From Eledone cirrhosa (Eukaryota): a stretch of DNA of 64,000 nucleotides. Where the stretch lies: positions 216,132,001 through 216,196,000 of the forward strand of contig OZ024743.1 of NCBI GenBank assembly GCA_964016885.1, given 5' to 3'. This document shows positions 1 to 52,502 of the stretch, one piece after another. The notes under the pieces were generated by a model. The model had not been told where the DNA came from. It made no database searches and was given only the letters and a program-made list of their open reading frames with translations. Every line of letters begins with the position of its first letter. The stretch's first letter is position 1. The position numbers and the translations under genes were made by a program.

Positions 1-1226
1 ATAACCATCTCTACTTATAGAAAATGGCATCCAGCGGGCTATAAAAATACCTATACAACAACTTAGAACAACCCAAGGAAGAAGAAACCAAGAACTGGTC
101 ATACCATTTATAATGACACACAACCCATGTCACCAGAATATCTTCAACACTGCCAAAGCAAACCTACCGATCATTGCTCAAAGTAATGAATTAAAAGGCT
201 TAATCACAGATCGATCTTTGACTCTTAGTAAAAGACAGCCAAACAATTTGAAGCAATTGCTAACAAAAGCAAAGTTTGACCTTAACAACAAAGTCCAATC
301 ATTCACTGTATCTAAATGCAATGATAATTGATGCGGCACATGTCAATCCATACACGCCGGTCAATATATGAAAACAAAAACTGGAAAAATATTCCCAAAT
401 GCAAATATAAACTGCAAAAGCAGAAATCTAATTTACTGCATTAAATGCCCGAATTGTGAAGAACTATATGTTGGTCAAACTGGAAATGCACTATCGGAAC
501 GTGCACGGGTACACCGTCAACAAATCAGAGACCCAAATGTACGTCAGATACCCCTAAGCGGCCACCTAGCAACATGTGGTCAGGGAATATTTATAATATT
601 CCCATTTTACAAATTACACAGCCCAAGTGAAATCAAGAGAAAAATCAAAGAAAAGAATTTTATTGATAAATTCAAACCCAAGCTAAATGAACAATAATAA
701 CGCCTAGGGGTATTACTTCTACTACCACTATGACCACGACCACTAACAACAACAACAACAACAACAATAATAATAATAAAAGTGATGTTGATGGTGATGA
801 TTAATAGAAAATGCTATTTTCATCATTTCAAAAAGCAAAACAATTCATACGTTGGGTATGACTATTGGTCGTTAGCATGCTCAACCAGCCGTGACGCTTA
901 AACCAATCAGCTGTAGTAATTCAGTGAAACTACACACTGATTGGTCGAAATACAGTTTACAGGGCTTTGCATTCTGGAGCCACTTTTCTCTGTATAAAAT
1001 GTATAAAAGGTAGTAAATTTACCCATCTCATTACAGTTGAAAATTGCAAACTCGACTGTAACCACATATCATGAACCTGAAGATTGCGAAAGCATGAAAG
1101 TACTTGTTCAATTAACACTTAGAATTTAATATTCTATCATACTATTTCATTATAATACCATATTATATGTATTTTAAAGGATCGTAAATAAAACGAGTAA
1201 ATCAGACCAAGTTGGAATTCCTCTTA

Positions 1227-2492: not shown

Positions 2493-2730
2493 GGTTTATT
2501 ATAATGTAAAACAAACAGCCCGAATTAAGCCGTAAAGTGTTCTGCATCCATCGTTGCCCTTTTGTTCAACACTGACAAGAGGAACGATGAACTAGTTTCT
2601 AGCTTATTAGCTGTCATCAGCACCGTATACCTTCCTGTCAGTCGAATGAACGTTTGAAAGTATATACTTTCCTTAAGCATATTAACGGCTAAGTGAGAAA
2701 TAAATTTTCATTTTTTTCCATTTATATATA

Positions 2731-3195
2731 TACAATATATTAACAAATGGAAACTATATTTATAAAACCATATTTATTTTATTATACATATTTCAAGGGC
2801 CACCAAGGCAAATTATGATGCGCTTCCATCAGATAAAATACAATACAGATTAGATTTATAAATAAATATTGAAATACCCTGAAAAAAGACAACCTTAATG
2901 GTTGGAGTTTCTTGGATAGCTTCCTGGACTATCTTCCTGGATAATCTTCCAGGACTAGCTTCCTGGACTATCCAAGAAGATCCAACCGTTAAGGTTGTCT
3001 TTTTTCAGGGTATGTAAATATTTATTTATAAAATTAATCTGTATTGTATTTTATCTGATGAAAGCGCACCATAATTTGCCTTGGTGGCCCTTGAAATATG
3101 TATAATAAAATAAATATGGTTTTATAAATATAGTTTCCATTTGTTAATATATTGTATAATTACTCCACTAACTGTTGAGTGCTTTATATCCCCTC

Positions 3196-5240: not shown

Positions 5241-5824
5241 TTTTGATAATCAGATAGTAATAAAACATTATCTGTTAAACATAAATGAATATCGATCTGA
5301 GATTTGTACTTACAATTTGTGAATATTTTTTCAGTTTATCGTATTCACTTCCAAATATATGAATTATGTATTTTTTTAAATAATACATTTTGGCGAAAAC
5401 ACTTAGATTTAATTGAATTGTGAAATTTTGTAGATGTCTGAGGAATTATCTCTTTCTGTGAAATATGTAATTCACGATATAAAGACTAATAGTATAGATT
5501 CTTATGTAAGAGAGAATTATAAACTTGCGTCATGATTTGATTAAAGCGTTTTCTAGTGATAAACAATGTAATATTGCCTGTCTAAGATGCGACATGAAAG
5601 TTTTATGGGAAAAAGAGGAATGATTTTTGTTTTTCCGAATTGTTATTTATGTGTTTCTTCCTCGTTCAACAAAACATTGACATTTTATATTGTATAAAAT
5701 AAAAAATGCATGTTGAGAATACAATGCTATCATCAAAACTAGTTTTGATTTCAAAATTCTTCGATGAAATAAGAATTCACACCTTTTATACATGAATAAA
5801 TATATTTATATATATATATTTCGT

Positions 5825-6935
5825 TTCTGAATATAGAAAGAACTAAGAACAAGGCCAATAGAATAAACTCATGGTATGATAGCAATAAATACCAGAGTGT
5901 AATGTTCATCATTACAACCCCTAGAGGTGAACTAGCCTACAAATTTAGAAGGGCCCTAAAGAAACATAATCTCAATATTAAGATAGTAGAAAGACCTGGT
6001 ACCTCCGTAAAAACACTTATTAGCAAGACATACCCGTTCCAAAGACCCTCATGTATAGATAAGAAATGTATAACCTGTAAAATAAGCCCCCATATTAACT
6101 GTAAAACTAGAAATGTAGTATATAGCATAAGATGTACTGAGGGACAATGTAGAAACAAAAATATAGTGTACATAGGTGAGACAGCTCGTAGTATAGGGGA
6201 ACGAATAAATGAACACTGGCGAGACCTCCAAGATAGTAAAGAATCATCTGTGCTCTACCAACATGCTAAGATAGAACACAGGGGTAAATTAGAGAGCATA
6301 GAAATAAAAATAGAATCCACACACAAGAAAGACGCAATGTTTAGGCAAATTACAGAGGCAGTAAGCATAAAGGAATTAAAACCAAAATTAAATAGAAAAT
6401 ATGAGTGGAACAGCAACATCACAACTTACAATTAAGGACAAAATGAAAACACACACACACATATATAAACAACTTACAATTGAAAACACACACAAAATGA
6501 AAACACACACAAGACAAAATGAAAACACACACACACATAGAACAAACAACCAACCAACAATAAATAAATAAATAAACAAACAAATATAAATATAAAAATA
6601 GAAAAATAGAAAAATGAACACAAACACACACAGACACCCGGATGTGGCGCATGCGCAAACTGAGCACGCAACCCACACACAAACAAAATGGCGTAGGATA
6701 GAAGAAAGGAAAGGCACAGAAACGAAGAAAGAAATCCCCAGTCACTGAAGAGGTCACAGAGTGTGTGACGAAAGAACTATGACTATATATATATAAACAA
6801 CTATCTGGTTGTGGAACCAACCAACCAACCAGAAATTTATAAATTTGTAAATTTATAAATATATATTAAATTAAATTGAAGTGAAAGCAACTGGTGCGTG
6901 TGTTTCTTATTGGCAACATGACCCTCCCAAAGTAT

Positions 6936-6940: not shown

Positions 6941-6997
<57 letters not shown>

Positions 6998-7284
6998 AGA
7001 TTTGAATGGATACAGTTTAGTTGAAAGGAATTTATTGACACGTGTTTCTATAACAGTTACATAACCTAAAACAGCTATCTACAAACTTTTAGTTATGCAG
7101 ACATTCAATATTTCAATGATATTGTTTACTGTCATTTCATCAGAATAATATTACTGAGGACCTATTTAGTTTTTATAGAGAATATTAGGAGGAAGGGGTG
7201 AAGTTGTTAGAAGAATAGTTGAAGGAGTGGTTTTTCGATAGCAGTGAGAATAAACCTTAATCTAGTTAGAAAAATATAAAAAGA

Positions 7285-7531
7285 ATAAACCTTAATCTAG
7301 TTAGAAAAATATAAAAACAATCTCTTTTCAACATATATTAATAACCTTAAATTACCATACTAATAATGAAAAGATATGCTGATGAGAATAGGTACAAATA
7401 TGCGATAATGAATGTGTCTAAAAACGTCCATAAGTATGTATATATATGTGAAAATGTATATAAATAAGTAAATATATATATATGTTTGATGTGTATAGTT
7501 AGATGTAAGTGTATTCATGTATTAAAGTGCT

Positions 7532-7580
<49 letters not shown>

Positions 7581-7581
7581 G

Positions 7582-7626
<45 letters not shown>

Positions 7627-8485
7627 GTATATGTATATATGTATATATATATGTGTATGTATGTATGTGTATATGGATGCGTATGTATGTGTATGTGTGT
7701 ACACATGGACTAGAGTATGTATGTATATATGTGTGTGTCTATACGTGTGTATATATAAAGATAAGTTGAGTATGAAAATGTATACACATGAGCGCGTATG
7801 TATGTACATGAATACATGTGTGTATATATATGTGTATGCATGTGTATATATATGTAAGTATGAATATGTGAATTGTGAGTATATGTATTTTGTAGAGGTG
7901 TGCAAATATATTTGTGTGTGAATGCGTGGGTGAAAGAATACGTACACTTGAAAGAAAAATTTAAGTCTGAATGTTAAGTGCAAACACAAAACCAACCACG
8001 CATATCTTTACTATCTCTAATCCTTCTATAGATTTAGAAAAATAACCAATAATATATTCTATAAAAAATGTCAAAACAACAGATGGGAATCTAATTAATC
8101 ACTGCCACCAAGAATTCTCACTGCTATCGAAAAACCACTCCTTCAACTATTCTTCTAACAACTTCACCCCTTCCTCCTAATATTCTCTATAAAAACTAAA
8201 TAGGTCCTCAGTAATATTATTCTGATGAAATGACAGTAAACAATAACATTGAAATATTGAATGTCTGCATAACTAAAAGTTTGTAGATAGCTGTTTTAGG
8301 TTATGTAACTGTTATAGAAACACGTGTCAATAAATTCCTTTCAACTAAACTGTATCCATTCAAATCTTTCTATTTTTCTCCGGATTACTTTTGGAACTAC
8401 AACTGGAACCGTCGAGCAAACTCTACGTGAGCTGATAATCTACTGTGTGTAATATTTATATTACAACACAACGGAAAAAACTGTA
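7285..8485 (+). repeat. 5' pseudo-LTR containing a ~500 bp TA/TG low-complexity tract and a degenerate hammerhead motif (8216-8264)
   Basis: Direct repeat of 10882-12080; CTGATGA-AATG..CATT-GAAA. Confidence 0.9.
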
Positions 8486-8537
8486 TATTTACCTCCTGTA
8501 AAGTCGAGCAACCCACACAGCAAACGCAACCACAACA

Positions 8538-10859
8538 ATGGAAAAACACTACCTGGATATGTCACTCAAAAACATACCAACCCAAGGTAGAAAGGAATAT
8601 TTATTGAGCATGATTCAAAAAACTAATGAATTCATTCGACGTGTCAGGTGGAAAACGCTCCACTATGATAGAAGCCGTATGAACTCAACATTAGAAAGTG
8701 GTGTAAACAAAAAATTCGGTTTTAGGACTTGTAAAAACCCACCCACCAACCCACTATTAGATGCATTTGAGCAGGACCTTATGAACTTAATCCTTAAAAT
8801 TAAATTCAAAGGACGCAACACCAACAGCAAATTACAGAAAGATATAAAAAAACTACTGGACGACCTTAAAAACACCAAAGGAATTGTAGTAAAAGCGGAC
8901 AAAACATCAAACCTGTACACTATGGATTGCACTACATACAACAACTTCATTCGAAAAGAATTACATAAAAAATATAGAAAAACGAGTGAAGTAACCCTTA
9001 AGCACATCAATGATGAGGCATGCGAAATAGTGAAAAATCTCGGAATCGAAGATAGGACAGGACCACTCTTACCGGCGGTACCCACTTTCAATCTTAAGGA
9101 CCACAAGGTAAACTTTGATAATGACCCTAAAATTAGATTAATCTGCCCCTCTAAATCAGATATAGGTAAAATAAGCAAATATATCTTAGATAGAATCATC
9201 CCCCAAATTAAGGCTAAGGTTAACATTAAACTCTGGGGGAAGACCCAAGAAGCAATAAGATGGTTTAATAGCATTAGCAATAAGAATAATTCTAAGTTTA
9301 TCCAGTTTGATATCGATGAATATTACTCATCGATATCACCTGAAACTTTGAATAGAGCCATTAAGTTTGCTAAGGATAACTCCGACCTTACAAACGATGA
9401 AATTAAGATTATATTAGAAGCTAGGAAAACTATAGTCAAATTTGAGAACAGTTATTGGGTACGTAAAGATAGACCCTCTAACTTTGACATAACAATGGGC
9501 TCTAACGATTCGGCGGAAATAACTGATATTGTGGGGTTATTTATCGCCTTTAGACTCCAGGAAAAATTCAGCAATCTCCACGGCGGAATATACCGCGACG
9601 ATGTTCTCCTCCTAGCTAAAAACCTTAATAACCAAAAACTAGAAAAACTACGCAAAGATATAAGAAAATTACTACTCGAAATAGGACTAACTATAACATA
9701 TGAATACAACCTTAAAGTAGTTAACTTCCTGGATGTCACACTCAATTTAAACTCTGGTTTGATTAAACCGTTTCATAAATTGAATGAAAATCTCAAATAC
9801 GTAAATGTTGGGTCTAACCACCCCATCTCTATAATTAAATCTATCCCTAAAAATATTTCCCTTAGAATCTCGGGTCTATCTTCTAACATACAAGTATTTA
9901 AGGAACACACCGAGTACTACGATAACGCCCTTAGTAAAGCAGGCTACCTCAACAAAATAGAGTACATAGATGGGAACAATCAAAACACCCAAAATAAATC
10001 CCACATAGGTAGATATAATAACACAACACCAAACCACACTTACTACCATAGTATGCACACCAGTAAACCAACAAACAAAACTAATAGAAAGCGATGCAAA
10101 GAGTACTTATGGTATAACCCCGAATACAATAGCTCCATTAGTACAAATTTACCAGTACTCTTCTTTAAAATAATTAAAAGACATTTTCCCACATCACACA
10201 AATACCACAAAATCCTAAACCCTACCACTATAAGACTGTCATACTCTACAGCGTTAAACCTTGAACAACACATAAAAAAGATCAATACTAGAAGGTTAAA
10301 CGAAAACACTAAGAACTTAAGTACAAAGAACCCCAAAAAAACAGTAGACAATACACTACAGAACATAAATAAACCACACCTAAGTTCGTCCGCAATACTA
10401 CTCCAGAGAAAACCCAACGTACACAACTGTAACTGCACCTATCCTGACAACTGCCCCCTCGGCAATAACTGCCTGGAAAAAAATATTATTTATAAGTGTA
10501 CCATTAAATCCGGAGGCAACGAGTGGTATTACGTGGGATCAACGGCAACATCGTTTAAATCTCGATTGTATAGGCATTCTTACTCAATAAAACACCAGAG
10601 CCAAAGAAATGTAACAACTTTAGCAGAGAAAGCTTGGACGCTCAGGGATAGCAATCAAAAGTTTACCCTAAAATGGGAAAAATTAGCTAAAACCCAAAGC
10701 TTTTCCAGGAGCCAAAATTTCTGCAAATTGTGTAATCTTGAGATTTATTACATAATCACACACAAGAAGAAACTGCTGAATAACAGAATTGAACGAACAT
10801 TATTCTGCCGTCACAGAACTAAAACCCTTTTTTCCCACTACAAGCCGAATATTACATAA
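8538..10859 (+). CDS. PLE reverse transcriptase + C-terminal GIY-YIG endonuclease, 773 aa
   Basis: ADKT, LKDHK, QFDIDEYY, ITMGS, GIYRDD, NFLD, WYNP, CNC..CPL..CL, IIYKC..YVGST..FKSR, C..C..E..N. Confidence 0.95.
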   Translation: MEKHYLDMSLKNIPTQGRKEYLLSMIQKTNEFIRRVRWKTLHYDRSRMNSTLESGVNKKFGFRTCKNPPTNPLLDAFEQDLMNLILKIKFKGRNTNSKLQKDIKKLLDDLKNTKGIVVKADKTSNLYTMDCTTYNNFIRKELHKKYRKTSEVTLKHINDEACEIVKNLGIEDRTGPLLPAVPTFNLKDHKVNFDNDPKIRLICPSKSDIGKISKYILDRIIPQIKAKVNIKLWGKTQEAIRWFNSISNKNNSKFIQFDIDEYYSSISPETLNRAIKFAKDNSDLTNDEIKIILEARKTIVKFENSYWVRKDRPSNFDITMGSNDSAEITDIVGLFIAFRLQEKFSNLHGGIYRDDVLLLAKNLNNQKLEKLRKDIRKLLLEIGLTITYEYNLKVVNFLDVTLNLNSGLIKPFHKLNENLKYVNVGSNHPISIIKSIPKNISLRISGLSSNIQVFKEHTEYYDNALSKAGYLNKIEYIDGNNQNTQNKSHIGRYNNTTPNHTYYHSMHTSKPTNKTNRKRCKEYLWYNPEYNSSISTNLPVLFFKIIKRHFPTSHKYHKILNPTTIRLSYSTALNLEQHIKKINTRRLNENTKNLSTKNPKKTVDNTLQNINKPHLSSSAILLQRKPNVHNCNCTYPDNCPLGNNCLEKNIIYKCTIKSGGNEWYYVGSTATSFKSRLYRHSYSIKHQSQRNVTTLAEKAWTLRDSNQKFTLKWEKLAKTQSFSRSQNFCKLCNLEIYYIITHKKKLLNNRIERTLFCRHRTKTLFSHYKPNIT

Positions 10860-10881
10860 AAGAGGGACATCCCCCAACTAT

Positions 10882-11128
10882 ATAAACCTTAATCTAGTTA
10901 GAAAAATATAAAAACAATCTCTTTTCAACATATATTAATAACCTTAAATTACCATACTAATAATGAAAAGATATGCTGATGAGAATAGGTACAAATATGC
11001 GATAATGAATGTGTCTAAAAACGTCCATAAGTATGTATATATATGTGAAAATGTATATAAATAAGTAAATATATATATATGTTTGATGTGTATAGTTAGA
11101 TGTAAGTGTATTCATGTATTAAAGTGCT

Positions 11129-11179
<51 letters not shown>

Positions 11180-11180
11180 G

Positions 11181-11221
<41 letters not shown>

Positions 11222-12075
11222 GTATATGTATATATGTATATATATATGTGTATGTATGTATGTGTATATGGATGCGTATGTATGTGTATGTGTGTACACA
11301 TGGACTAGAGTATGTATGTATATATGTGTGTGTCTATACGTGTGTATATATAAAGATAAGTTGAGTATGAAAATGTATACACATGAGCGCGTATGTATGT
11401 ACATGAATACATGTGTGTATATATATGTGTATGCATGTGTATATATATGTAAGTATGAATATGTGAATTGTGAGTATATGTATTTTGTAGAGGTGTGCAA
11501 ATATATTTGTGTGTGAATGCGTGGGTGAAAGAATACGTACACTTGAAAGAAAAATTTAAGTCTGAATGTTAAGTGCAAACACAAAACCAACCACGCATAT
11601 CTTTACTATCTCTAATCCTTCTATAGATTTAGAAAAATAACCAATAATATATTCTATAAAAAATGTCAAAACAACAGATGGGAATCTAATTAATCACTGC
11701 CACCAAGAATTCTCACTGCTATCGAAAAACCACTCCTTCAACTATTCTTCTAACAACTTCACCCCTTCCTCCTAATATTCTCTATAAAAACTAAATAGGT
11801 CCTCAGTAATATTATTCTGATGAAATGACAGTAAACAATAACATTGAAATATTGAATGTCTGCATAACTAAAAGTTTGTAGATAGCTGTTTTAGGTTATG
11901 TAACTGTTATAGAAACACGTGTCAATAAATTCCTTTCAACTAAACTGTATCCATTCAAATCTTTCTATTTTTCTCCGGATTACTTTTGGAACTACAACTG
12001 GAACCGTCGAGCAAACTCTACGTGAGCTGATAATCTACTGTGTGTAATATTTATATTACAACACAACGGAAAAAA

Positions 12076-12080
<5 letters not shown>
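10882..12080 (+). repeat. 3' pseudo-LTR
   Basis: Direct repeat of 7285-8485. Confidence 0.9.
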
Positions 12081-12112
<32 letters not shown>

Positions 12113-12114
<2 letters not shown>

Positions 12115-15010
12115 AGGAGGTTATAGTTCACTTGAAGCATTGTGTAATGATGTATAAACGTTTGAATATGTATAATAAACCCAAAACAATGCAGGTATGG
12201 ACATAGAAAAAAGAATGCAATTGCAAAAGATATTGTTGACAAGTCGTCTTTTACCTTAGATTTATTTAAATGTCCTTAATTTTCGAGATAATATCTCTTC
12301 TTCAGAGGGAAATAAAGGTCTGAAACCAGCGTTCTAAATATCTTGTCAAGCCATGCTCACAGGAAATAGTATAGAGTATCTGTTCTATCTCTAATGTCAA
12401 AGAGTTAAAATTAGGTGGATAGAGAATAGTCTCCCTTTAAAAGGGGTTTGTTTAGTTTTTTTTTATATACATGCCTGTTTAAGTGTGTGGGAGAATGCAT
12501 GAAGGTGTAAGTATGTGAGTGTGTGTGTGTGAGTGTGAGAAGATAAGTCTATTCGTAAATGTGGGGGATAGGTGTTATCTGGTGTTAGAACTGGTTGTGT
12601 GTGTGTATGTGTGAGAGAGAATAAGTGGAGGTGTAAGCGTGTGTGTGTGTGCGTGCGTGTGTGTGGGGGGGTGTAAATATGGGGCTAGAAGCCCTATCAG
12701 GTTATAAATTGGGTGTTGAATTCTAGTCTATTATTGATTGGTGGTTGTGTTTTATCTATAATTAGTGCTTCCTTAATTCTAAGATTGCCGAGGTTTCTTT
12801 CCTTAGTTTCTATCCTAACTGTTATGGTTTTGTCGGTGTTTTGGCATTTAACTAAGTGTTTCTTAAATGAGGAAGCGTTAGTATTGAGGTGTTCTTTTAT
12901 TCTTATGTGGAGTGGTCTGGTGGTGCTACCTACGTAGAAGTTGTTGCATTTGTCACACTCTAGTCTGTATACGACGTAAGCCTGGTGGCATAGGTCTGTG
13001 TCGTTGACGGGGCAGTTGGCTAGTCTGCAGCAGTTGTCATGTCTGGTGGAGTGTCTTTTGGTTAGCTGTCCGCGTAGAGAAGGACCTGAGTGGACCAGTT
13101 GGATATCTAGTCCCTCTCGTCTGATGGCTCTGCGGATGGCTGTTGTTGTTTCTTCACTGAAGTGTGGGAGCTTCAGGAAGCAAGTGTTAGTGCCTCGGGT
13201 GTGGTGTCCCGTGTTCTTTCTGGCACGGTTTGTGGTGGATGTCGTGTATCCGTTCAGTTTGAGTACTTCCAGGAAATGTGTGGTGTGTGTGTCTCGGTCT
13301 CTAGCGTCGGTGCATGTGTTCCGGATATGTGTCAGCTCGTTCCCTATGTATCCGAACTTGGAACCGAGTGGGAGGGCCGACTGAAATGTACGAACAGGTC
13401 CCTGCTAGCGGCTTTTTTATAGAAGCAGGTGTGCATGTTGCCTTCCTCTGTTACCCTGAGTTGGAAGTCCAGTAGGGATAGGGATCCGTGGTCATCGGGG
13501 TGTTCCATGTTCAACTTTATACTAGCGTCCATGCTGGACAATGTTTTGTATATTGTATCTGCCTCCTCACGGGATGATGTAAGGATGAGTATGTCATCTA
13601 CATATCGGGTGAAGAAGGCATGGGAATGGCAGGTGTTTAGGGCTCGGCATTCTAGATGGTTCATGTAGGTGATGGCCAGCAGGCCCGATAGGCTGGATCC
13701 CATGGGTAACCCTGTTGTCTGTCTGTATGTGTGGTGGTGGAAGGAGAAGTAAGTGTTGTCTACTGTGAAGGACAAAAGCTGGTGTATGTCCGTCGAGTGG
13801 AGGCCGTAGCAATGGATGTCCTCTGCGACCACGCAGTCCGTCAATAAATCGAAGCTGGATGAGCGGGGACTGTAGTGTAGTGGGAGACAACGTCGAGGCT
13901 AAAAGCGTATTTATTTAGTTTAAGTTGTTCTGGCTGGAGTTGGTGTAGTCTACGTATAACTTCGTCGGTGCTACTGACATGCCCGGGAAAGGTGGAGAGT
14001 AGAGGCATGAGGACCTGGCAGAGGAGCCAAGAAATTTTGTATAGGGGTCCTTCTATGCTAGAGACGATGGGTCTTATTTGCGTCTTAGTACTATTCTTGT
14101 GTGTCTTGATGAGGTGGTAGAAAGTGGGCAGTCTGCTATTTATAGTGGTGTAGTTGAGCTTAACTTTATTTGGGAGTTGTCTTCTCCTACAGATATCGAA
14201 CCAAATGGAGTTGGTCTGTTTTTCGATCTGGGCTGCAGTCATGTCCGGGATCTCTGTGTATAATTCATTGTCGCTTAGGTTTTCAAAGGCTAGGTTATTG
14301 TATGTGGCTTGAGAGATGACGCAAAACTATTTACCTTTGTCGGAAGGTAAGTATATAAGTTCCCTATTCCCTAGGTTCTTCAGGGCGAGTTGTTTTGTCC
14401 TACAGAGGTTTGGGGCTATCTTCTTCTGTTTCCGTGAGATGTTAAATACGGAATGTTTTAGTCTCGAGAGTTTTTCTTCAAGCTCGCGGTTGGCAGGCGG
14501 TGGACAGAGTGGGCCACCCAGTTGGTATATCGGGAATCTGGATTTGATGGATTCCGTGGTGTTGTTGTCGAGAGTCGATATCCATTTTAGTTGGTAGGCA
14601 GCCCGACAGGATTTCGTTTCTATGTCGAGCCATAATTTGTCGTCCAGTCTCTGTTTCGATATGAACTTGGGACCCAGGCTGAGGAGGTCTAATTCCTCTC
14701 GGGAGAGGGATCCTGTCAAGTCTGTGACGAGGTGTTTTGCGTCAGGTGTGTTGTTGGTCGGGGCGCCGCTAGGTTCGGTGTTGGTACCGTCTTGTTCGCC
14801 TCTGTTGGTGTTTAGAGTTGGGATGTTGTTAAGACAGTTGGCCGTCCTGAGTTTGAGAAATTTTTGCGTTAGACGTCTTTTCTCGTAGTCTCGGCGATGG
14901 TGGTATGACCTGTCTATAGTGTCGGAGATGACTCTGGACAGAGGTTCTGGGGTTTCAGCGAGTTGTGGTACAAGGCTGGAAATAGTCCGTGTGTGATGTT
15001 GTAGCGTGCA
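12113..15010 (-). mobile_element. Near full-length, frameshifted PLE (Penelope/Poseidon-like)
   Basis: LLSLGPKF, SDKG, LPTFYHLIKTHK..IRPIVS, GLPMGS, RYVDD, SLLD. Hand-translated GIY-YIG VVYRLECDKCNNFYVGSTTRPLHIRIKEH..EALII..N ends at ~12703. Confidence 0.92.
12274..12309 (-). ncRNA. Minimal hammerhead motif in the PLE 3' region
   Basis: Minus strand CCT-CTGAAGA-A-GAGA tatta TCTC-GAAA-AT-TA-AGG; stems I and III very short. Confidence 0.6.
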
Positions 15011-15165: not shown

Positions 15166-15334
15166 TGTGGGTGTATGTGTGTGTGTGTATGTGTGTATAC
15201 AGGGTGTCCCAAAAATGTATACACAATTTGATTACCTGAACAGGTATCATTTATTACAATGCGTTTGAAGTGTGTATTTATTATTTTGGAATACATTCTG
15301 TATATATATATAAATATATATATATACATATAAT

Positions 15335-16440
15335 GATAAATTATATATCCCTACACGCAAAATACATATAGGGACACATATATTATCCAACCATATGCCA
15401 ATGTGGTTCTATGGCAGATTAATAAATTAACGAGCCAGAACATATATAATCAAGATTTAGCAAATAAGAAAAAAATGTTAAATAAATTTTAAAAAATTCA
15501 CTGTACCTGCTGTGGTTACATTTACCGTACGGTTTCGAGTCTCAAGAATAAATGGATAGTCCTTACGGGCCTCCATTGAACAGAAAAACCCTCGTCAGAA
15601 GGTTCTTTTCACTCGGAGAATATAAAATTCCAGGGTTCGAATTACGAACTGGCGCTATTCAAAATTGTTCCCGAGGTGAGAATGAATGATGTGGAAGCAA
15701 TTCTGTCCAGTGCCGTGTGCAAAGATAGAAGGCAGAGGCGGAGAGTTCAATCTACTACCACTAGAAACAGCAGCTGTCAAAACGACCAAATGTTATCTCG
15801 ACAATGGGGGGGATAAATAATAATAAAGTATATATCCCTACACGCAAAATACATCGAGATAACATTTGGTCGTTTTGACTGCTGCTGTTTCTAGTGGTAG
15901 TAGATTGACCTCTCCGCCTCTTATTTGCTAAACCTTGATTATATATGTTCTGGCTCGTTAATTTAGTAACCTGCTATAGAACCACATTGGCATATGGTTG
16001 GATAATACATGTGTCCCTATATGTATTTTGCGTGTAGGGATATATACTTTATTATTATTAATCTCCCTCTGGTCGAGATAACATTGGGTCGTTTTGACTG
16101 CTGTTGTTTCTAGTGGTAGTAGATTGACCTCTCCGCCTCTGCCTTCTATCTTTGCACGCGGCACTGGACAGAATTTCTTCCACATCATTCATTCTCATCT
16201 CGGGAACAATTTTGAATAGCGCCAGTTCGTAATTCGAACTTGGGAATTTTATATTCTCCGAGTGAAAGGAACCTTCTGACGAGAGTGTTTCTTTCCAATG
16301 GAGGCCCGTAAGGACTATCCATTTATTTTTGTGACTCGAAACCGTACGGTAAATGTAACCATAGCAAGACCAGTGAATTTTTTTTAAATTTATTTTAAAA
16401 TTTATTTTAAAATTTATTCTTATTTGCTAAACCTTAATTA
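15335..16440. mobile_element. Non-coding retrozyme-like element: two inverted ~490-500 bp monomers, each terminally redundant, each with a type I hammerhead
   Basis: CTACACGCAAAATACAT recurs at 15351 and 15838; TTATTTGCTAAACCTT recurs at 15921 and 16420. Hammerheads at 15518-15603 (-) and 16271-16356 (+). Confidence 0.8.
16271..16356 (+). ncRNA. Type I hammerhead ribozyme with palindromic stem III
   Basis: ACCTT-CTGACGA-GAGT..AATGGA..TCCATT..ACTC-GAAA-CCGTACGG-TA-AATGT. Confidence 0.85.
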
Positions 16441-16443
16441 TAT

Positions 16444-16535
<92 letters not shown>

Positions 16536-17613: not shown

Positions 17614-17850
17614 GTGATATATAGATTTTCTTTACCTTTCTTTTGTGTTTCTGGCTTAGCACTTTGAAAATGACTCAGTGATTGTAAAGGCGTAGATATT
17701 TTGTTGGTATCATAAGGTTACAATTCGTATAAATATGACGTATGTATCATGTCATATATTTAATGTGCAGTGGTTTTTCATTTGTCACATATAAGTTTAA
17801 GAAATTGGCATATTTCTCCTGTGTAAAAACCTAAGACGAGACAATATATT

Positions 17851-17884
<34 letters not shown>

Positions 17885-17888
17885 TTAA

Positions 17889-18783
17889 AAAATAGAGCAA
17901 GAAGCCAGGACTATCCATCATCAGTGATATTCTGGCCATCATAGGTATTTCTTCGCATGAAAGATTAGGTACCTCAGGCCAGCGCGAACAATAACTAAAA
18001 TAAGTTATTGGGATAAAAAGAATTGGGTGGAGAAAGAGAGACATGTAAACAAACAAGAATGGTGAGGCATCGTAAAGAGTGGAAAATGAGAATACAAGTC
18101 AGTGATACATATGAACATAAGATCTAGCGAATCATTGACAAGAAGAAGAAAGATGCATCCAAGCCATGCGAAATATGAGCGAGAAAAGAATTTCACACGG
18201 GTCAGACGGGGGAAGTGAGAGAGGGAGTGAGTGAAAGTGTTTGGAAGAGGCTAGCCGAGAGAGGCTCTTTCTCCACACAATATGTTTTCCTTTCGCTGTG
18301 ACCTGTCTTTTTCTCTTCCCTTACTGCTATCCTGTTTCTCTCTCCCCGTCTCTCTCCTTGTACCTCTTACTTTCATTCACCCCCTCTGCTAGTCACCCTC
18401 TTTCAGCTAGCCTCTTCCTCACACTTTCACTCACTCACTCTCTGCTACTCACCCTCTCTCACTTCCTCCCGTCTGACCCGTGTGAAATTCTTTTCTTGCT
18501 CATATTTCGCATGGCTTGGATGCGTCTTTCGTTTTCTTGGCAATGATCCGCTAGATCTTATCTTCACATGTATCACTGACATTTTTCTCATGTTACGCTC
18601 TTTACGTTGCCTCACCATTCTTGTTTGATTACATGTCTCTCTTTCTCCACCCAATTCTTTTAATCCCAATATATTATGTAAGTTATTGCTCGCGAAAGGC
18701 CTGAGGTAGCTGATCTATAATTCGAAGAAATACCTATGATGACCAGAATATCACTGATGATGGATAGTCCTGGCTTCTTGCTC

Positions 18784-18787
<4 letters not shown>
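17889..18787. mobile_element. Inverted pair of diverged ~380 bp repeat tails (probably PLE 3' ends) between (TA)n tracts
   Basis: 17889-18264 is the reverse complement of 18395-18787 with many substitutions; CTGATGA motif near the outer ends. Confidence 0.7.
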
Positions 18788-18835
<48 letters not shown>

Positions 18836-19779
18836 TGTTAACGGATGGGCGAATGAGTACTCAATACGGAAGACTATTTTAAATATTAACGTCGTTTTAG
18901 TTTGATTTTCCACCTCTGCATTTACTGGAACTTCATGATTGCGTCATATATATATTGTGATATTTGGGTCTGGCCAATGTGCCAATTTTGCCAATAAACA
19001 CACCTATTTGAATTTTACTTTTGGTTAATTATTGGATAGTGTTTAGTGGTTAATTCATCACATTTCTTTCGTCAAACGTTCTCTGAACGCCTCAATGTCT
19101 TTTTGTTCCACTTCCCTAAGTCGCCTCCTCTTTCTAGTCTTATTTTGTTCATTCCATCTTGACTTTCTGTAGCATAATATTAGGATTCATATACATATTA
19201 TACTACAAGCTTCCAATTCAAGTCTTCCTTTGCTGAAGCGTAGTATCTTCGAGGATATTCACTTCAATCGAGTAAAAATGTTCTTAGCAACCTTTTATAA
19301 GCATTACATTCTTATTTCTATCATTTCAAAATATTTACAATTAATATAAATTTTTACATGTATTCAATCATATTAAATATTTTAATTGGTCTTTCTCAAT
19401 TTTGCATTTAGTAATTCCTTAAAAATAATTTATATTCTCATACAAATCTTTTATATATGTCAGTACTATGTAATACCTATGTTCGGCATTGTTCACTATA
19501 TTATACGTATGTAAGTATGTGGATTTGGGTATATACCTACAAGTGTATCCGAGCATATATACATATGTAGCTATATGTGTGTGTGGGTGTGTATGTGTGC
19601 GTGTGTGTGTGTATGTGTGCGTGTGTGTGTGTGTGTGTGTGTATGTGTGTGTGTGTGTGTGTGCGTGTGTGTGTGCGCGCGCGCGCGCGCGTGTGTGTGT
19701 GCATGTGTGTGTGTGCTAGCGAGGAGAATGGCATAGACCATTTCCTCAATTGGAAACACGAAGGACGCATTGTTAAAGT

Positions 19780-39863: not shown

Positions 39864-39940
<77 letters not shown>

Positions 39941-39945
<5 letters not shown>

Positions 39946-40723
39946 TATTTTCCGTAGTGTTGTAATATAAATATTACACACAGTAGATGGACAGCTCACG
40001 TAGAGTTTGCTCGACGGTTCCAGTTGTAGTTCCAAAAGTAATCCGGAGAAAAATAGAAGGATTTTAATGGATACAGTTAAAAGGAATTTGTTGACACGTG
40101 TTTCTATAACAGTTACATAACCTGAAAACAGCTGCTATCTACAAAGTATTAGTTATGCAGACATTCAATATTTCAATGTTATTATCAACTGTCATTTCAT
40201 CGGAATAATTTTACTGTGGACCTGTTTGGTTTTTATAGAGAATATTAGGAGGGAGGGGTGAAGTTGTTAGAAGAATAGTTGAGGGAGTGGTTTTTTGATA
40301 GCAGTGAGAATTTTTGGTGGCAGTGAGTAATTAGATTCCCATCTGTTGTTTTGACATTTTTATAGAATATATTATTGGTTATTTTTCTAAATCTATAGAA
40401 GGATTAGAGATAGTATAGATATGCGTGGTTGGTTTTGTGTTTGCACTTAATTAACATTCAGACTTAAATTTTTCTTTCAAGTGTACGTATCTTTTCGCCC
40501 ACGCATTCACACACAAACATATATGCACACCTCTACAAAATACATATACTCACATACACATACTTACATGCTCATACTTACATACATATACACATGCATA
40601 CATATATATATACACATATATACATGTACATACATACGCGTTCATGTGTATACATTTTCATACTCAACTTATCTTTATATACACACGTATAGACACACAC
40701 ATATATACACACATACTCCAGTC

Positions 40724-40764
<41 letters not shown>

Positions 40765-40924
40765 CGAAGGAAGTGTGGTAAGGAACGAGGTGGACCATAA
40801 CGCACCAAAGTACTCAATACTTGAGGTAGTAGAGTGGGTAATAGGAACCAGTAAGACCCCGACAGCTGAGCTCAAGCCGTTTCGACGGAACGGCTTGAGC
40901 TCAGCTGTCGGGGTCTTACTGGTT

Positions 40925-41009
<85 letters not shown>

Positions 41010-44000
41010 ACTTTAATACATGAATGCCCTTACATCTAACTATACACATCAAACATATATATATATTTACTTATTTATATACATTTTTCCCATATATATA
41101 CATACTTATGGTCGCTTTTAGACACATTCATTATAGCATATTTGCACCTATTCTCATCAGCATATCTTTCCATTATTAGTGTGGTAATTTAAGGTTATTA
41201 ATATACATATATATGTTGAGAAGAGATTATTTTTTTTTTTTTTTATAACTAGATTGAGGTTTATATAGTTGGGGGAATGTCCCTCTTTTATGTAATATTC
41301 AGCTTGTAGTGGGAAAAAAGGGTTTTAGTTCGGTGACGGCAGAATAATGTTCGTTCAATTCTGTTATTCAGCAATTTCCTCTTGTGTGTGATTATGTAAT
41401 AGATCTCAAGATTACACAATTTGCAGAAATGTTGGCTCCTGGAAAAGCTTTGGGTTTTAGCTAATTTCTCCCAATTTAGGGTAAACTTTTGATCGCTATC
41501 CCTGAGCGTCCAAGCTTTTTCTGCTAATTTGTTACATTTATTTGGCTCTGGTGTTTTATTGAGTAAGAATGCCTATATAATCGAGATTTAAACCATGTTG
41601 CCGTTGATCCCACGTAATACCACTCGTTGCCTCCGGATTTAATGGTACACTTATAAATAATATTTTTTTCCAGGCAGTTATTGCCGAGGGGGCAGTTGTC
41701 AGGATAGGTGCAGTTACAGTTGTGTACGTTGGGTTTTCTCTAGAGTAGTATTGCGGACGAACTTAGGTGTGGTTTATTTATGTTCTGTAGTGTATTGTCT
41801 ACTGTTTTTTTTGTGTTCTTTGTACTTAAGTTTTTAGTGTTTTCGTTTAACCTTCTAGTATTGATCTTTTTTATGTGTTGTTCAAGGTTTAACGCTGTAG
41901 AGTATGACAGTCTTATAGTGGTAGGGTTTAGGATTTTGTGGTATTTGTGTGATGTAGGAAAATGTCTCTTAATTATTTTAAAGAAGAGTACTTGTAAATT
42001 TGTACTAATGGAACTATTGTATTCAGGGTTATACCATAAGTACTCTTTGCATCGCTTTCTATTAGTTTTGTTTGTTGGTTTACTGGTGTGTATACTATGG
42101 TAGTAAGTGTGGTTTGGTGTTGTGTTATTATATCTACCTATGTGGGATTTATTTTGGGTGTTTTGATTGTTCTCATCTATATACTCTATTTTGTTGAGGT
42201 AGCCTGCTTTACTAAGGGCGTTATCCTTGTACTCGGCGTGTTCCTTAAATACTTGTATGTTAGAAGATAGACCCGAGATTCTAAGTGAAATATTTTTAGG
42301 GATAGATTTAATTATAGAGATGGGTGGTTAGACCCAACATTTACGTACTTGAGATTTTCATTCAACTTATGAAACGGTTTAATCAGACCAGAGTTTAATA
42401 TTGAGTGTGATATCCAGGAAGTTAAGTACTTTAAGGTTGTATTCATATGTTATAGTTAGTCCTATTTCGAGTAGTAGTTTTCTTATATCTTTGCGTAGTT
42501 TTTCTAGTTTTTGGTTATGTAGGTTTTTAACTAGGAGGAGAACATCGTCGCGGGATATTCCGCCGTGGAGATTGCTGAATAATTTTTCCTGGAGTCTAAA
42601 GGCGATAAATAACCCCACATCAGTTATTTCCGCCGAATCGTTAGAGCCCATTGTTATGTCAAAGTTAGGGGATCTATCTTTACGTACCCAATAACTGTTC
42701 TCAAATTTGACTATAGTTTTCCTAGCTTCTAATATAATCTTAATTTCATCGTTTGTAAGGTCAGAGTTATCCTTAGCAAACTTAATGGCTCTATTCAAAG
42801 TTTCAGGTGATATCGATGAGTAATATTCGTCGATATCAAACTGGATAAACTTAGATTTATTCTTATTGCTAATGCTATTAAACCATCCTATTACTTCTTG
42901 GGTCTTCCACCAGAGTTTAATGTTAACCTTAGCCTTAATTTGGGGGATGATTCTATCTAAGATATATTTGCTTATTTTACCTATATCTGATTTAGAGGGG
43001 CAGATTAATCTAATTTTAGGGTCATTATCAAAGTTTACCTTATGGTCCTTAAGATTGAAGGTGGGTACCGCCGAGATTTTTCACTATTTCGCATGCCTCA
43101 TCATTGATGTGCTTAAGAGTTACTTCATTCATTTTTCTATATTTTTTATGTAATTCTTTTCGAATGAAGTTGTTGTATGTAGTGCAGTCCATAGTATACA
43201 GGTTTGATGTTTTGTCCGCTTTTACTACAATTCCTTTGGTGTTTTTAAGGTCGTCCAGTAGTTTTTTATATCTTTCTTTCTGTAAATTGTTGTTGGTGTT
43301 ACGTCCTTTGAATTTAATTTTAAGGATTAAGTCCATAAGGTCCTGCTCAAATGCATCTAATAGTGGGTTGGTGGGTGGGTTTTTACACGTTCTAAATCAA
43401 AATTTGTTGTTTACACCACTTTCCGATGGTGAGTTCATACGGCTTCTATCATAGTGGAGCCTTTTCCACCTGACACGTCGAATGAATTCATTAGTTTTTT
43501 GAATCATACTCAATAAGTATTCCTTTTTACCTTGGGTTGGTATGTTTTTGAGTGACATATCCAGGTAGTGTTTTTCCATTGTTGTGGTTGCGTTTGCTGT
43601 GTGGGTTGCTCGACTTTACAGGAGGTAAATATACAGTATTTTCCGTAGTGTTGTAATATAAATATTACACACAGTAGATGGACAGCTCACGTAGAGTTTG
43701 CTCGACGGTTCCAGTTGTAGTTCCAAAAGTAATCCGGAGAAAAATAGAAGAATTTTAATGGATACAGTTTAGTTAAAAGGAATTTATTGACACGTGTTTC
43801 TATAACAGTTACATAACCTGAAAACAGCTGCTATCTACAAAGTATTAGTTATGCAGACATTCAATATTTCAATGTTATTATCAACTGTCATTTCATCGGA
43901 ATAATTTTACTGAGGACCTGTTTGGTTTTTATAGAGAATATTAGGAGGGAGGGGTGAAGTTGTTAGAAGAATAGTTGAGGGAGTGGTTTTTGATAGCAGT

Positions 44001-44260
44001 GAGAATTGTTGGTGGCAGTGAGTAATTAGATACCCATCTGTTGTTTTGACATTTTTATAGAATATATTATTGGTTATTTTTCTAAATCTATAGAAGGATT
44101 AGAGATAGTATAGATATGCATGGTTGGTTTTGTGTTTGCACATAATTAACATTCAGACTTAAATTTTTCTTTCAAGTGTACGTATCCTTTCATTCACACA
44201 CAAACATATATGCACACCTCTACAAAATACATATACTCACATACACATACTTACATGCTA
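39941..44260 (-). mobile_element. Decayed sister copy of the 6992-12080 PLE (ORF 41288-43579 frameshifted, YRDD changed to SRDD)
   Basis: High identity to 8538-12080; partial 5' pLTR at 43631-44260. Confidence 0.95.
40841..40929. repeat. Perfect 41-bp-arm hairpin made from PLE tail sequence
   Basis: ATAGGAACCAGTAAGACCCCGACAGCTGAGCTCAAGCCGTT, 7-nt loop, exact reverse complement; homologous to 32538-32586. Confidence 0.95.
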
Positions 44261-46924
44261 ATACAACCCATTCAATAAATTGAGGGTAACGTTGAGGTAA
44301 TTAACGACCGAGAGATTGGCCTCAACCTGTATAGAGAGGTTGAAGCCTTTAAAGAAGGCTGTGAGTTCTTTTCTGAACCTGTCGCAAGCACGAGGTCCGC
44401 ACTTAGTCATGGTCAAAAGATCATCGTCACGGTACAAATTGGTTCACGGTGATTGATTGGTTCAACGGCATACGTGACAAGGAACATTGCCGTTTTATCC
44501 AATTCGACATCAACAATTACTACTCCTCCATCACTTTACCACTTCTCCTTAGAGCTATCAATTTCGCTAAAACACTCACAGTGGTTAAGGATTTCGAAGT
44601 TGATGTCATCCTTAATGCCCGAAAGTCGGTGATTAATTTCGACGACTCTATTTGGATAAAAAAATCCAATAGTACTCCATTCAACGTGAGTATGGGTGCC
44701 AGTGACTCTGCGGAGGTTACTGATCTTATTGGCCTTTTCCTCCTTTTCTCTACCAAGGACGAATTCCCCAACGCGGGTCTTTTGACCATGACTAAGTGCG
44801 GACCTCGTGCTTGCGACAGGTTCAGAAAAGAACTCACAGCCTTCTTTAAAGGCTTCAACCTCTCTATACAGGTTGAGGCCAATCTCTCGGTCGTTAATTA
44901 CCTCGACGTTACCCTCAATTTATTGAATGGGTTGTATTACCCGTATAGAAAGCCGAATGGTACGCTTAATTACATAAGTAAGCATACCAACCATCCTGTC
45001 AGCATAACCAAGAACCTGGTAAGAAACGTTTCGTTGAGGCTTTCCCGTCTTTCCACCAACGAGCGCATTTTTAACGACCATTCCACTTATTACAATGAAG
45101 CTCTTGCTCGAAGTGGATTTGTCGATAGGGTAGCATATACAGAGTACGAAAATAGACCTAGAAGAAATAGATCCCGTCGCATTTGTTGGTTTAACCCACC
45201 ATATAATATGGAGGTGGTCACACCATTAGCTAAGATCTTTCTTTCCCTTATTACGAAGCTTTTTTTCCCCCTACACATAAATATATTAAAATCTTTAATA
45301 GAAATACTATTAAAATTTCTTACTCTACGACTCCTAACCTTGCACATAACATCACAGCTTCAAATTTAGATAAACTACCTAGCCGTAGGAACACGTGCAA
45401 CCCTGTAGTTAGTACTAACTGTAATTGTAGGAATCGGGCTGATTGCCCCCTATCCGGGAAATGCCTCTCTAGTAACGTTGTCTACAAATGTAAGGTTGTA
45501 ACACCCACGTCCCGTAGGGCCTACATAGGGTTAACCGCCAATAGTTTCTAGCAGCGTCTTTACATGCATACCCATTCTTTTCGTTACCCTCTAAGAAGGA
45601 ATATGACGTCACTTTCAGCTTATATCTGGAGTCTAAAAGACAACCACACCCAATATGAGTTACACTGGGAGATCCTAGCTAGGGCTAGATCGTATAACGG
45701 AAATAAAGGACCATGTGACCTCTGCGCCACTGAGGCCCTGGAAATACTCTACGCCACAGACCACATATTAAACAAAAAATTTTAGGCAATTTCGGCTTGT
45801 AAACGTAAATTGCACAAAACTTTCCTGTATTACAGCCCCACGTTATACCCTAACGGATAGTTCGATCTATACGTGGATATTTTACGTCTTGATGTGGGAG
45901 CTAAGTATATGTTTTGTTTATTCCTTTACTTATCTGCATAGGTAAGTATATATTATCCATATATTTTGTGAAGGTATGTATACCTTCTCGTACGTATATT
46001 TGATTGTTATTGCGTATAATTATTATATTCTGGTATTTAGGGTTTGGCTATGTGTATACGGGAGTTTTGCGTCTGCGTGAGTATGCAGGCTCGTACGTAT
46101 GGTGGGTGTGTGTATATGTGTACTTCTTGTTTTAGTTGACTTACGTCTCCGAACATTCGTGTATTTATATGTAGGTATGTGTGTGCGTTTGTTATATACG
46201 TATTTATTTACTTATATACGTTTATATAATTATTTATTTGTACACAAGCATACACACACACACACATATTTATATGTGCGCGGTTTTGTATACCTATGGT
46301 AAGGTTTTGCGTATGCTTGTGTATGTACGTATTTATTTGCGTGTATGTATTTATTTATTTCTATTACTTCTGTATTGTATTTATTTACTTTGTTCTTAAC
46401 TCTGTAGCAGAGATTCATTTGGTCTCCTAGTTAGAATTTTAGTCTACCACTTCTGCTATACCATTTACGTGGTTTTGTCTCCACGGTCCACATATGACTT
46501 ATTATCTTCGTTTTTTCGTACATTGCCAGAGAACGTCTCTATGCACCACCTAAGAGAAGATTAGTCTACGACCTCTTGTATACCATAAACGTGGTTTTGT
46601 CTTTGCGCGTAATTGTTTTTCACCGCTCCTATTAATGACGTATTGTTCGTTTTTTCCCGTTCTTTGCCAGCGAACGTTTCCACGAACCAAAGTATCGTCT
46701 TCCTGTCTTCCTCCGGTTGCAACGTTTTTTGAAATATCCAGTTCTGCGTTTACAGATTGACATTGTTAGTTTCAGAAGATCCCGTTAAGTGTGAAAGCAG
46801 CGATTCTTTGCTTAAACTTTAATATGTTATTTAATAAATATTTGCTCTACGGTTCTTATATATTTGATATATATTTATCCTTATCGAGGCCTCTTTGGAT
46901 TTTAGTCTTCAATTTTATTATTAT

Positions 46925-49304: not shown

Positions 49305-52300
49305 TTACAGACACATACTCAGAGAAGGCCCATTCATTCGGGCCATACTTGCTTCTCTCACCCATCTTTCAACAAAATGCTGGGAAGAGAGCACTTCCCT
49401 CTCTACCCTGATTTTCCTTTTCAAATGAAATTTGAAAAAGTTAATCAGGGCATCACCGAAGAGGTAAGTGCTCGTCTTCAGCCCTTTCAAACGTGTCCAC
49501 CATACTATCTCTTTCGCCATGGCCACCAGACAGATAAAAACTGCCTGCCCTTCCCGGCTAAAGAAAGGGGGCGGGGCAATCCTCACGATGGACTCAGCTG
49601 ATAGCCGGATCCGTCCTACACGTGACAGAAGGTGTTCGACATAAACCCACAAGTCAGCAATGCTCGGACACTGGACGAGTGCGGGCAGGACGGTTTCGTC
49701 GCCCTGCGCGCATCTCGGACATGCCTGGCTGACGGCACCTCCATGCCTGTAGAGTTTATCCCGAACTGGCAAAGCTCCTCGGTAACACTGCCAGGCCAGG
49801 GATTTCTGGAAGTTGTCCATAGGCCCCGGCCCGAAAGTCCTTCCGAAGAGATTGACTAGTTGATTTTCGTCGACGCCTAGAGTTTCTCCAAGTGTCTGAG
49901 CATCATCAGCCACGGCATGCCCAGCCCTCCACGTAACGGGTGTTGACAGCAGATGGACCGCCTGACCATCGGAGCGCGTCCCTTCCACAAGAAGCGAAAG
50001 AGCAAACGCTCCAGCGCAGTCAGGCGGGGCTTAGGACAAGGTACGACGGTCAGGCGGTAGTAGATGACGGATGCAATGTACGGATTCGCCACCTCCGCTC
50101 GACCTTTCAGGGATAGCTTCCTCTCGGCCCATTTCTGGGTGAGAGAAGCCACCCTGCTCGTCACCTCGTCCCAGTTTTTGTCCGTCTGGAGGTCTGGACC
50201 GAACCAGACCCCTAGCAATTTAACAGGTCCGTCCGTCCAGCGCCCGACGACGCTGTTGGACGGCATGGACCTGCCTCTCCAGGTGCCGAGCTGCAGGCCC
50301 ACTGACCTTTCCTGGTTGATCATTGCTCCTGTCACCGCTTCGTATTCTCCTAGTGTAGTGCCGATCGCCTCGATGTGTTTGGCGTTCGACACCACTACGG
50401 TGACATCGTCCGCATATGCTGACACGGATCTTCCGCATCCTAGTTCGCGCGGGACCCCCCTCAACGTCTCCAGTTTGTGCAGTAATGGCTCGAGAGTCAA
50501 TACGTACAATAGGGACGAGAAGGGAGATCCTTGGCGGACCGAGCGCATGATGTTGAACGGTTCCGAAAGGAGACCGTTCACTCTCACTACAGAGCAGATG
50601 TCGCTGTGTATGGCAGCGATCCAGCCTCTGAAGACGGGCCCAAAGCCAGCCGCCCTCAGGACTGCCGCTAGGTAACGATGGTCGACCCTATCGAAGGCTT
50701 TCGACTGATCTAAATTGATCAAAGACCCACCCGTGCCAGGCTCCCTAGCTACCCTCTCTACGATGTATCGCTTGAGGTGGAGGTTGTCGTGGATGGATCT
50801 GTCGGGAATGGCGCATGTCTGTGCCTCTCCCACCAGACCACCAACGACAAACGCCAACCTCTTTGCTAGCACCTTGGCCAACATCTTGAACTCTGTGTTT
50901 AGCAGAATTATGGGCCTAAAATTATCTATGTTATCCCCCTTGTTCGGATCCTTTCTCAGCAGCGCCACCGCTCCTCGGCTCAGAGAGCTGGGAATTCTTC
51001 CGTTCTGTTGCCAGTTGCAGTAGACGTCCGCCAAGAGGCCTCCGAACAACTTTGGCATTTGTACGTAAAGTTCATATGGCAGACCATCCAAACCAGGCGA
51101 TTTACCCCTTGTGCAATTAGTCATTGCATCCCGTACTTCAGCGGTTGTTATCGGCTTTTCGCAACACTCCGCCTCAGTGGCCGAAAGCCGCGGCAGTCCG
51201 TCGAGGTAGACACTAAAGTACATCCCTCGATCCGGCCCGCCACTGTCCCCGAACAGTTGAGCGAAGTGTCGCTGAAAAGCTTCACACATTTGCCCAGGAT
51301 CCAGTAGCATGCGCCAGTCGTGGTCCACCAAAGACCGGATCGTGGCTTTGTTGCCACGACGCGCCTCCGACACTCGGGCCCATTGAACGGCTTTCGTCCC
51401 CTCGTGTCTGAGAGCACGCACCCTAGCTCTGACAACGCAACCTTCGTGCTTTGCATTGAAGAATTGGTCAAGGGCCAATTTCGCCGCAAGTATGTCGGTC
51501 GCGATGCCTTTGCTAAGCGCCTCATCTAATTTTCTAACTAATTCTCCCTCTGCTCTATTTTTCTCTATTGCTAAAGTCTTACTAAACCTAATGGACTCTA
51601 TTCTAATTGCTCTTTTCAGAGCAAACCACCACTTGTTGTTTACGATGGCCCCTGTCAACGCCCGCTTAACTAGTTCGCTAATCCGGTCTCTGTAGGCCTT
51701 GCGCGCTGGTAAGGAGGCGTTTAGCTTCCAGTAGCCGGGTCCTCGTCTATGAAGCCTATCTAAGTCAAGCACACAGATCACGAATTTGTGCTCCGTGTAG
51801 CTGACTATCTTCAATTGTGGACAGCCTATGCTAGACCTATCTATTTCCCTACAAAATACTCTATCTAGATATGATCTGGATGACCCTATGCGATTTGTCC
51901 AAGTCCACATTGGTACATTCGGGAAATCCATTCGGTACCTGTCAGACAGTTCAAAACGTCTGAGCAGGTTGGTGAGACTGTTGCACCCTCCTCCCCTATC
52001 CACTAATCCCACACAATCCCAGCGTGCATCTAAGATCCCGTTCCAGTCGCCCACTAACACTAAAGAGCGGGACGTTCCAAGAAAGGTCTCCAGATGCCGG
52101 AAGAAATCAGGCCGCCCTGCTCCTGTCGGGGCATAGACGGCCACTAACCTGAAAGCTTGGCCGTCTCCGCTGGTCACGTCCAGCACCACCAACTTACCTT
52201 CTGGGTCCAGGAAGATGGCCCGTATGGCAAGATCCAAACCTCTCCGAAAAAGCACAGCAACTTCTCCCCCCGATCCCGGACGGCTGGGAGATGCGTACAC

Positions 52301-52468: not shown

Positions 52469-52502
52469 GTTGAAAAGAAGGGGAAAAGATGGTAAAGACC
52501 AC

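Follow-up and report, generated by a model that had tools for sequence, protein, structure and literature searches.

Within the 64,000-nucleotide stretch of Eledone cirrhosa DNA analysed here (the window), positions 15330-16445 hold what is very probably a single head-to-head insertion, made in one event, of a non-coding hammerhead element of ~486 nt. The element is a non-LTR retrozyme, or non-autonomous Penelope-like element (PLE), that belongs to an abundant family and sits in (TA)n; the copy in the window is old and decayed, and is otherwise an ordinary repeat copy. With monomer positions counted from the predicted hammerhead cut, the left arm (15330..15854, minus strand, 525 nt) starts at +156, makes one full round and stops at what we call site B (+193). 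The right arm (15919..16445, plus strand, 527 nt) starts at +54, makes one full round and stops at site A (+81), where its last bases are common to the TA tract. The terminal repeat and period are 38 nt and 487 for the left copy and 28 nt and 499 for the right copy, the latter period exceeding the 486 nt of the family majority because 12-13 nt are duplicated within an AT tract. The opposite orientation and the two periods were already given in an earlier note on this DNA and hold good, as does its placing of the copies in (TA)n: the outer end of each arm abuts such sequence, at 15301..15329 on the left and 16446..16535 on the right. Target-site duplications are unreadable inside (TA)n. A "tail", the ~112 nt between sites A and B (15330..15441, minus strand), is present at the outer end of the left arm only, and 15442 aligns with 16445. 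The note had joined the arms by a 65-bp inverted piece; a piece does lie at the inversion joint, but it is 68 nt long (15854..15921, plus strand, monomer +208..+275) and has the orientation of the right copy. It overlaps the arms by 1 and 3 nt, and is likely a template jump.

The kind of element that the note had named, a non-coding hammerhead monomer in tandem copies of more than one unit, is what we find, and its canonical hammerhead survives in part. Each arm has a type I hammerhead core, on the left at 15523..15598 (minus strand, predicted cut between 15523 and 15522) and on the right at 16276..16351 (plus strand, CTGACGA...GAAA CCGTACGG TA), where the cut is predicted after 16351. The departures from the canonical form are a 55-nt insert in stem II and a damaged stem I, which scores 2 bp in the window as against 5 bp in the family because of a G>T change three bases past the cut (+3) in both arms. 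This change is present in 8 of 73 loci. A strict hammerhead scan of the window returned two matches only, one per arm, and Rfam at its gathering score gave no match in the window. The two arms are 91% identical to each other, with differences at 36 of 486 sites; against their own majority they reach 95.2% and 93.5% identity, and four non-majority variants are common to both (1.0 expected).

The retrozyme-like family is new, of a known kind. It comprises at least three subfamilies with units of 483-488 nt, their majority lengths being 486 (the old subfamily, that of the window), 483 (young) and 488 nt (third). First-look searches of the 3.0 Gb genome gave 2,521 candidates with the window monomer, 2,094 with its younger sister and 1,408 with the third subfamily, sets that overlap and whose numbers are not copy numbers; a 25-base monomer motif has 1,739 exact matches in the genome as against 0 for its control. 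Between the old and young subfamilies the similarity is 79% and is highest over the 150 nt that follow the cut; most young copies have 95-99.5% identity to a single young unit. An arm runs over two laps in 16 of 209 insertions, with a maximum of 8.8 laps at locus L263. At another locus, L112, three family insertions lie within 2 kb, and one of its copies (5767-6814, minus strand, young) starts at the predicted cut and is two laps and a further 81 nt long. At L161/L162 (C17) one insertion is present in three duplicated copies of two or three laps each; since the lap number differs among these duplicates, it must also change after insertion.

Across the family the hammerhead core is conserved, and in 25 aligned copies the stem I-III pairing of the named structure is kept in 91% of cells. 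Stems I and II show compensated changes across the three subfamilies, and a two-sided change is seen at one pair of the 25-copy alignment, so that the covariation rests on few events. Stem I reads ACCTT/AAGGT in the family and ACCCT/AGGGT in the third subfamily. The stem III majorities of the three subfamilies are CCGTACGG, CCGATCGG or CCGCGCGG, all of them palindromes, and a non-palindromic stem III, CCGTTCGG, occurs in 41 of 106 old-subfamily laps. Hammerhead domains taken by themselves show no folding advantage over shuffles (z of -0.6 to -1.1), and the best fold of the window copies is not the hammerhead. The predicted circle of the majority unit (GC 0.37 for the monomer) has a z of -5.6 against 40 shuffles, the window units reach -4.4 and -3.6, and the antisense circle folds well too (z of -3.6). 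Adopting the hammerhead within a predicted circle is 3-6 kcal/mol less favourable than the best fold, and stem II covaries with a competing upstream helix; these two observations suggest that the ribozyme may be switched off within the circle.

The ends of the family were mapped at 260 loci, from which 51 repeat views were removed to leave 209 insertions. About three segmental duplicates are still among the one-direction young copies, and pieces under 60 nt were ignored in scoring ends, both for the monomer and for the Hydra-clade PLE described below. Three of the four samples consist of top-scoring matches and are hence biased; the fourth, ordered by position along one chromosome, takes the first 100 of the 1,739 motif matches and favours B arms. 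The earlier note had seen in the locus a monomer integrated twice at different points of circular permutation. When ends are tabulated over the 209 insertions, the 5′ ends are scattered but the 3′ ends fall at two fixed sites, A at +70..86 (~80 nt past the predicted cut) and B at +178..199 (~190 nt). One-direction copies (n = 140) end at A in 115 cases, at B in 14 and elsewhere in 11, and the 69 two-armed copies among the 209 comprise 57 A+B, 2 A+A, no B+B and 10 with one end elsewhere, the window element being one of the A+B pairs. Of the 27 two-armed copies in the position-ordered sample, 25 are A+B and none is B+B; independence would give, per 28, about 11 A+B, 10 A+A and 3 B+B. Sites A and B each lie a few bases 3′ of a predicted hairpin. 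TA runs are longer past 3′ than past 5′ ends (median 33.5 vs 9.5 nt in the young set, 14 vs 8 in the old), which could come from target choice or from a telomerase-like addition of TA.

Given that the 3′ ends keep to two fixed sites, and that both sites are represented in 57 of the 69 two-armed insertions, we read the window locus as one event, and the double integration is set aside. Two independent integrations at random permutation points, or an assembly artefact, would account for arms that differ at so many sites and end at different points. Each arm, however, lies 5-7% from its majority, as expected for decay after one old insertion, and insertions of this build, with just two end points, are found at 69 of the 209 loci. 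The end map refutes the integrations, recurrence at other loci is the one argument against an artefact, and to this pair of explanations we give next to no weight.

A different origin for the inversion would be fold-back, in which one cDNA or an antisense template primes itself, as has been proposed for rotifer Penelope elements (PMC3846280). It would suit the mirror joints seen in 3 of 69 two-armed monomer insertions and in 2 of 18 of the Hydra-clade PLE. The other 66 of the 69 monomer joints are non-mirror, so that fold-back is largely refuted for the monomer family; the arms of the window copy begin at two different positions, +156 and +54, and are separated by a third piece. We consider fold-back improbable. 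At most joints the arms either overlap by a few bases or leave a short gap (range -17 to +9).

The insertions have the anatomy of PLEs, namely fixed 3′ ends, 5′ truncation, an inverted arm, a one-sided tail and a microsatellite target. Of these, the fixation of 3′ ends, the truncation, the tail on one side and the use of (TA)n as target are documented for PLEs (PMC8557442), and would also be expected if the copies were 5′-truncated ends (solo pLTRs) of an autonomous Penelope element. Against this, what lies upstream of the unit is the unit itself, up to 8.8 times, and tblastn with nine window PLE protein fragments found no ORF abutting any 5′ end of the examined copies. The earlier note had named as an opposing outcome that genomic copies are always the pLTR of an ORF-bearing PLE; no examined copy adjoins a PLE ORF. 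The feature of autonomous EN+ PLEs, an ORF with RT plus GIY-YIG joined to the repeat, was likewise not found, and the monomer has no similarity to PLE proteins (best E 0.18). Among the 10,595 GIY-YIG candidates in the genome, 30 loci were checked for a monomer match and none had one; the window's PLEs show no pLTR homology to the monomer. A search for a parent by a short-stem-II pattern gave two matches, one unrelated to the monomer and the other a family copy with a deletion. None of these searches, which took in a small part of the GIY-YIG candidates, brought up a parent PLE with sequence in common with the monomer. It is thus very improbable that the copies are solo pLTRs.

The window also contains a very young PLE of the Hydra clade (6992-12086, period 3,595) with an intact 785-aa frame (8502-10859). 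The frame has RWK, DKT, a terminal CRH and a CxCx5C linker, which are marks of that clade (PMC8557442), and a 321-nt piece of the element is matched exactly at at least 41 places. Its inverted arm (6992-7251) stops 115 nt short of the main arm. Counted from the putative cut of this element, its two 3′ end sites are +114 and +229; the putative hammerhead (about 11818-11854) reads GAAATATTG, with an atypical cut site. Eighteen of its 31 insertions are two-armed, and all 15 of these that can be scored are A+B, the other three being unscorable at N gaps. This PLE follows the same A+B rule as the monomer. It shares no real sequence with the monomer, its pLTR matching AT-rich bits only, and as a parent it lacks a sequence link.

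Several other elements lie in the window. A second, older copy of the same Hydra family (about 94%) is found at 39909-44264 (minus strand), and a broken PLE with RT and GIY-YIG (12113-15010, minus strand) adjoins the retrozyme insertion; visual inspection of this broken PLE suggests a minimal minus-strand hammerhead near 12260-12310, and it has no sequence in common with the monomer. Two further head-to-head elements are present, one non-coding and lying between TA tracts (17841-18838), whose left arm extends about 10 nt beyond the right (a one-sided tail), and one palindromic (2729-3158), with a hammerhead-like CTGATGA...GAAA seen by eye at about 3056-3098. A short stretch at 15200-15300 begins CAGGGTGTCCCAAAA, which we take to resemble a Tc1/mariner terminal repeat. 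A long RT frame with a zinc finger lies at 49305-54089 (minus strand), and two tandem LINE-like copies, 97% identical, at 54736-64000 (plus strand).

A key question related to the mechanism is what template was copied. In the young subfamily 18 marker haplotypes are found in 37 insertions. Marker sites agree in 397 of 402 comparisons between laps of one arm (115.6 disagreements expected) and in 230 of 235 between opposite arms (68.7 expected); homopolymer and gap sites are left out of these counts, which become 546 of 573 for laps and 303 of 316 for arms when they are included. For example, private variants at L135 are common to every lap of both arms, and L263 carries 8.8 laps of one 24-variant haplotype with only two private differences, plus an inverted B arm. 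In the old set non-majority variants are shared 136 times between laps and 25 times between arms, as against 33.5 and 7.3 expected. The arms cross the cut site, which means that the template was uncut or re-ligated. We infer that a new variant reaches every lap only via passage through a single unit, as a circle provides. The haplotype shared by laps and arms therefore favours rolling copying of a circular monomer, and we lean, with moderate confidence, toward a circular template.

The main rival is a homogeneous linear donor or multimer, which would give the same haplotype pattern for one generation. Here the element and the two-ended priming would be unchanged, and an uncut linear multimer, transcribed from a tandem donor locus, would serve as the template and make a circle unnecessary. 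Long homogeneous arrays such as L263 could serve as donors, ribozyme mutants still insert in vitro (PMC11167929), and in one sample, the position-ordered set, 5′ ends are mildly enriched near the cut (7 vs 2.0 expected, P 0.005, in one of 12 bins, chosen post hoc). Three of those seven ends, however, extend 2-3 nt beyond the cut, and the old set has no such pile-up (3 of 89 vs 3.8 expected); in the young set, which is query-biased, 8 of 54 5′ ends lie at the cut. A linear donor would also have to explain many haplotypes, each uniform over all laps, which needs repeated passage through a single unit, and arrays copied from linear donors could become shorter but never longer. Of 84 lap differences, only 5 are found again in a second insertion, about as many as we estimate for chance. 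A linear multimer is accordingly an unlikely template, if one to be taken more seriously than the other alternatives.

We favour as likely, with moderate confidence, a mechanism in which a Penelope-type RT/endonuclease acting in trans cut (TA)n and primed one DNA end per site on a probably circular RNA. Tandem genomic copies, of which we find examples up to 8.8 laps, would be the starting loci. Their transcripts would self-cleave, probably as double hammerheads paired via the palindromic stem III, and the cleaved monomers would be ligated into circles. Both target strands would then be primed, one at each start site, and rolling copying would follow, as is suggested by arms that cross the cut site for more than one lap in one haplotype. 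Finally, the arms would be end-joined, in the window with one captured 68-nt piece; end joining is suggested by the joints, which connect unrelated positions of the monomer and show an overlap or gap of a few bases.

More tentatively, and with rather more doubt than conviction, we extend the proposal to Penelope retrotransposition at large: the reaction might be two-ended, one complex priming both ends of a (TA)n break on one circular RNA, at fixed and different sites, with rolling copying. An implication, if this is true, is that the tandem, inverted and one-sided-tail structures of PLEs all stem from one two-ended reaction, which would be recorded in both a retrozyme and an autonomous Hydra element. 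The near-strict A+B pairing, repeated in the autonomous element, and the single-haplotype arrays of up to 8.8 laps are countable genomic evidence.

A type of inverted insertion is known from LINEs: L1 twin priming makes one insertion with a 5′ inverted arm and a microhomology joint. By comparison, the arms of the monomer overlap freely and may each exceed one lap, and the second primer is at a fixed site. Plant LTR retrozymes, with a type III hammerhead in LTRs, a PBS and a PPT, were rejected as a class, the topology here being type I and the units head-to-tail laps.

The closest relatives in kind are the metazoan non-LTR retrozymes, tandem type I hammerhead units that are expressed as circles and for which PLEs are the proposed mobilisers (Cervera and de la Pena 2020, PMC7229834); they are described as derived from pLTRs (Li et al. 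2026, bioRxiv 10.64898/2026.07.22.740005). Like them, the monomer is non-coding, has a GC content below 50% and a type I hammerhead, is dispersed as monomers to multimers, has a stable predicted circle and co-occurs with PLEs. It is longer than the 170-400 nt of invertebrate retrozymes, within the 51-972 nt of the 2026 preprint, and differs further in its 55-nt stem II insert. Circles have been shown experimentally for published non-LTR retrozymes, whereas here they are predicted from sequence. In the parts consulted of the 2020 paper and the preprint we found no mapping of fixed 3′ ends or inverted arms.

The second comparison is with EN+ PLEs, especially the Hydra clade (Craig et al. 2021, PMC8557442; Arkhipova et al. 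2013, PMC3846280), which share with the monomer partial tandems, an adjacent inverted copy, a tail at one end only, a hammerhead and (TA)n targets. PLEs have been described with an inverted, 5′-truncated copy and with a tail of 30-40 nt on one end (PMC8557442; PMC3846280); the monomer differs in having no ORF and a tail of about 110 nt. The origin of tandem and inverted PLE copies with a one-sided tail has been called an open task (PMC8557442), and a proposal of 2014 has PLEs use a circular template and dimeric cleavage (PMC4209133). The anole Poseidon PAc protein acts on AT-rich DNA, of which it cuts both strands and extends both (Frangieh et al. 2024, PMC11167929). It starts internally at two sites that bound the tail, one of them about 85-92 nt past the ribozyme cut, and in vitro its choice of start site shows no strand difference and ribozyme cleavage is not needed. 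The monomer is alike in its AT-rich target, in two start sites bounding the tail, with A about 80 nt past the cut, and, under the proposed mechanism, in the extension of both strands. That study saw no strand preference of the start site, and pairing within one insertion is outside its scope in the parts consulted. The literature searched contained no statement of A+B pairing, which the reviews of 2005-2006 or the supplements of PMC11167929, PMC7229834 and the 2026 preprint may describe, as they may the family itself. What is known already is the kind of element and the tail on one arm; what is added here is the counted A+B rule and the haplotype evidence, which together turn a qualitative, known feature of PLEs into a testable mechanism, with predictions for an existing in vitro system.
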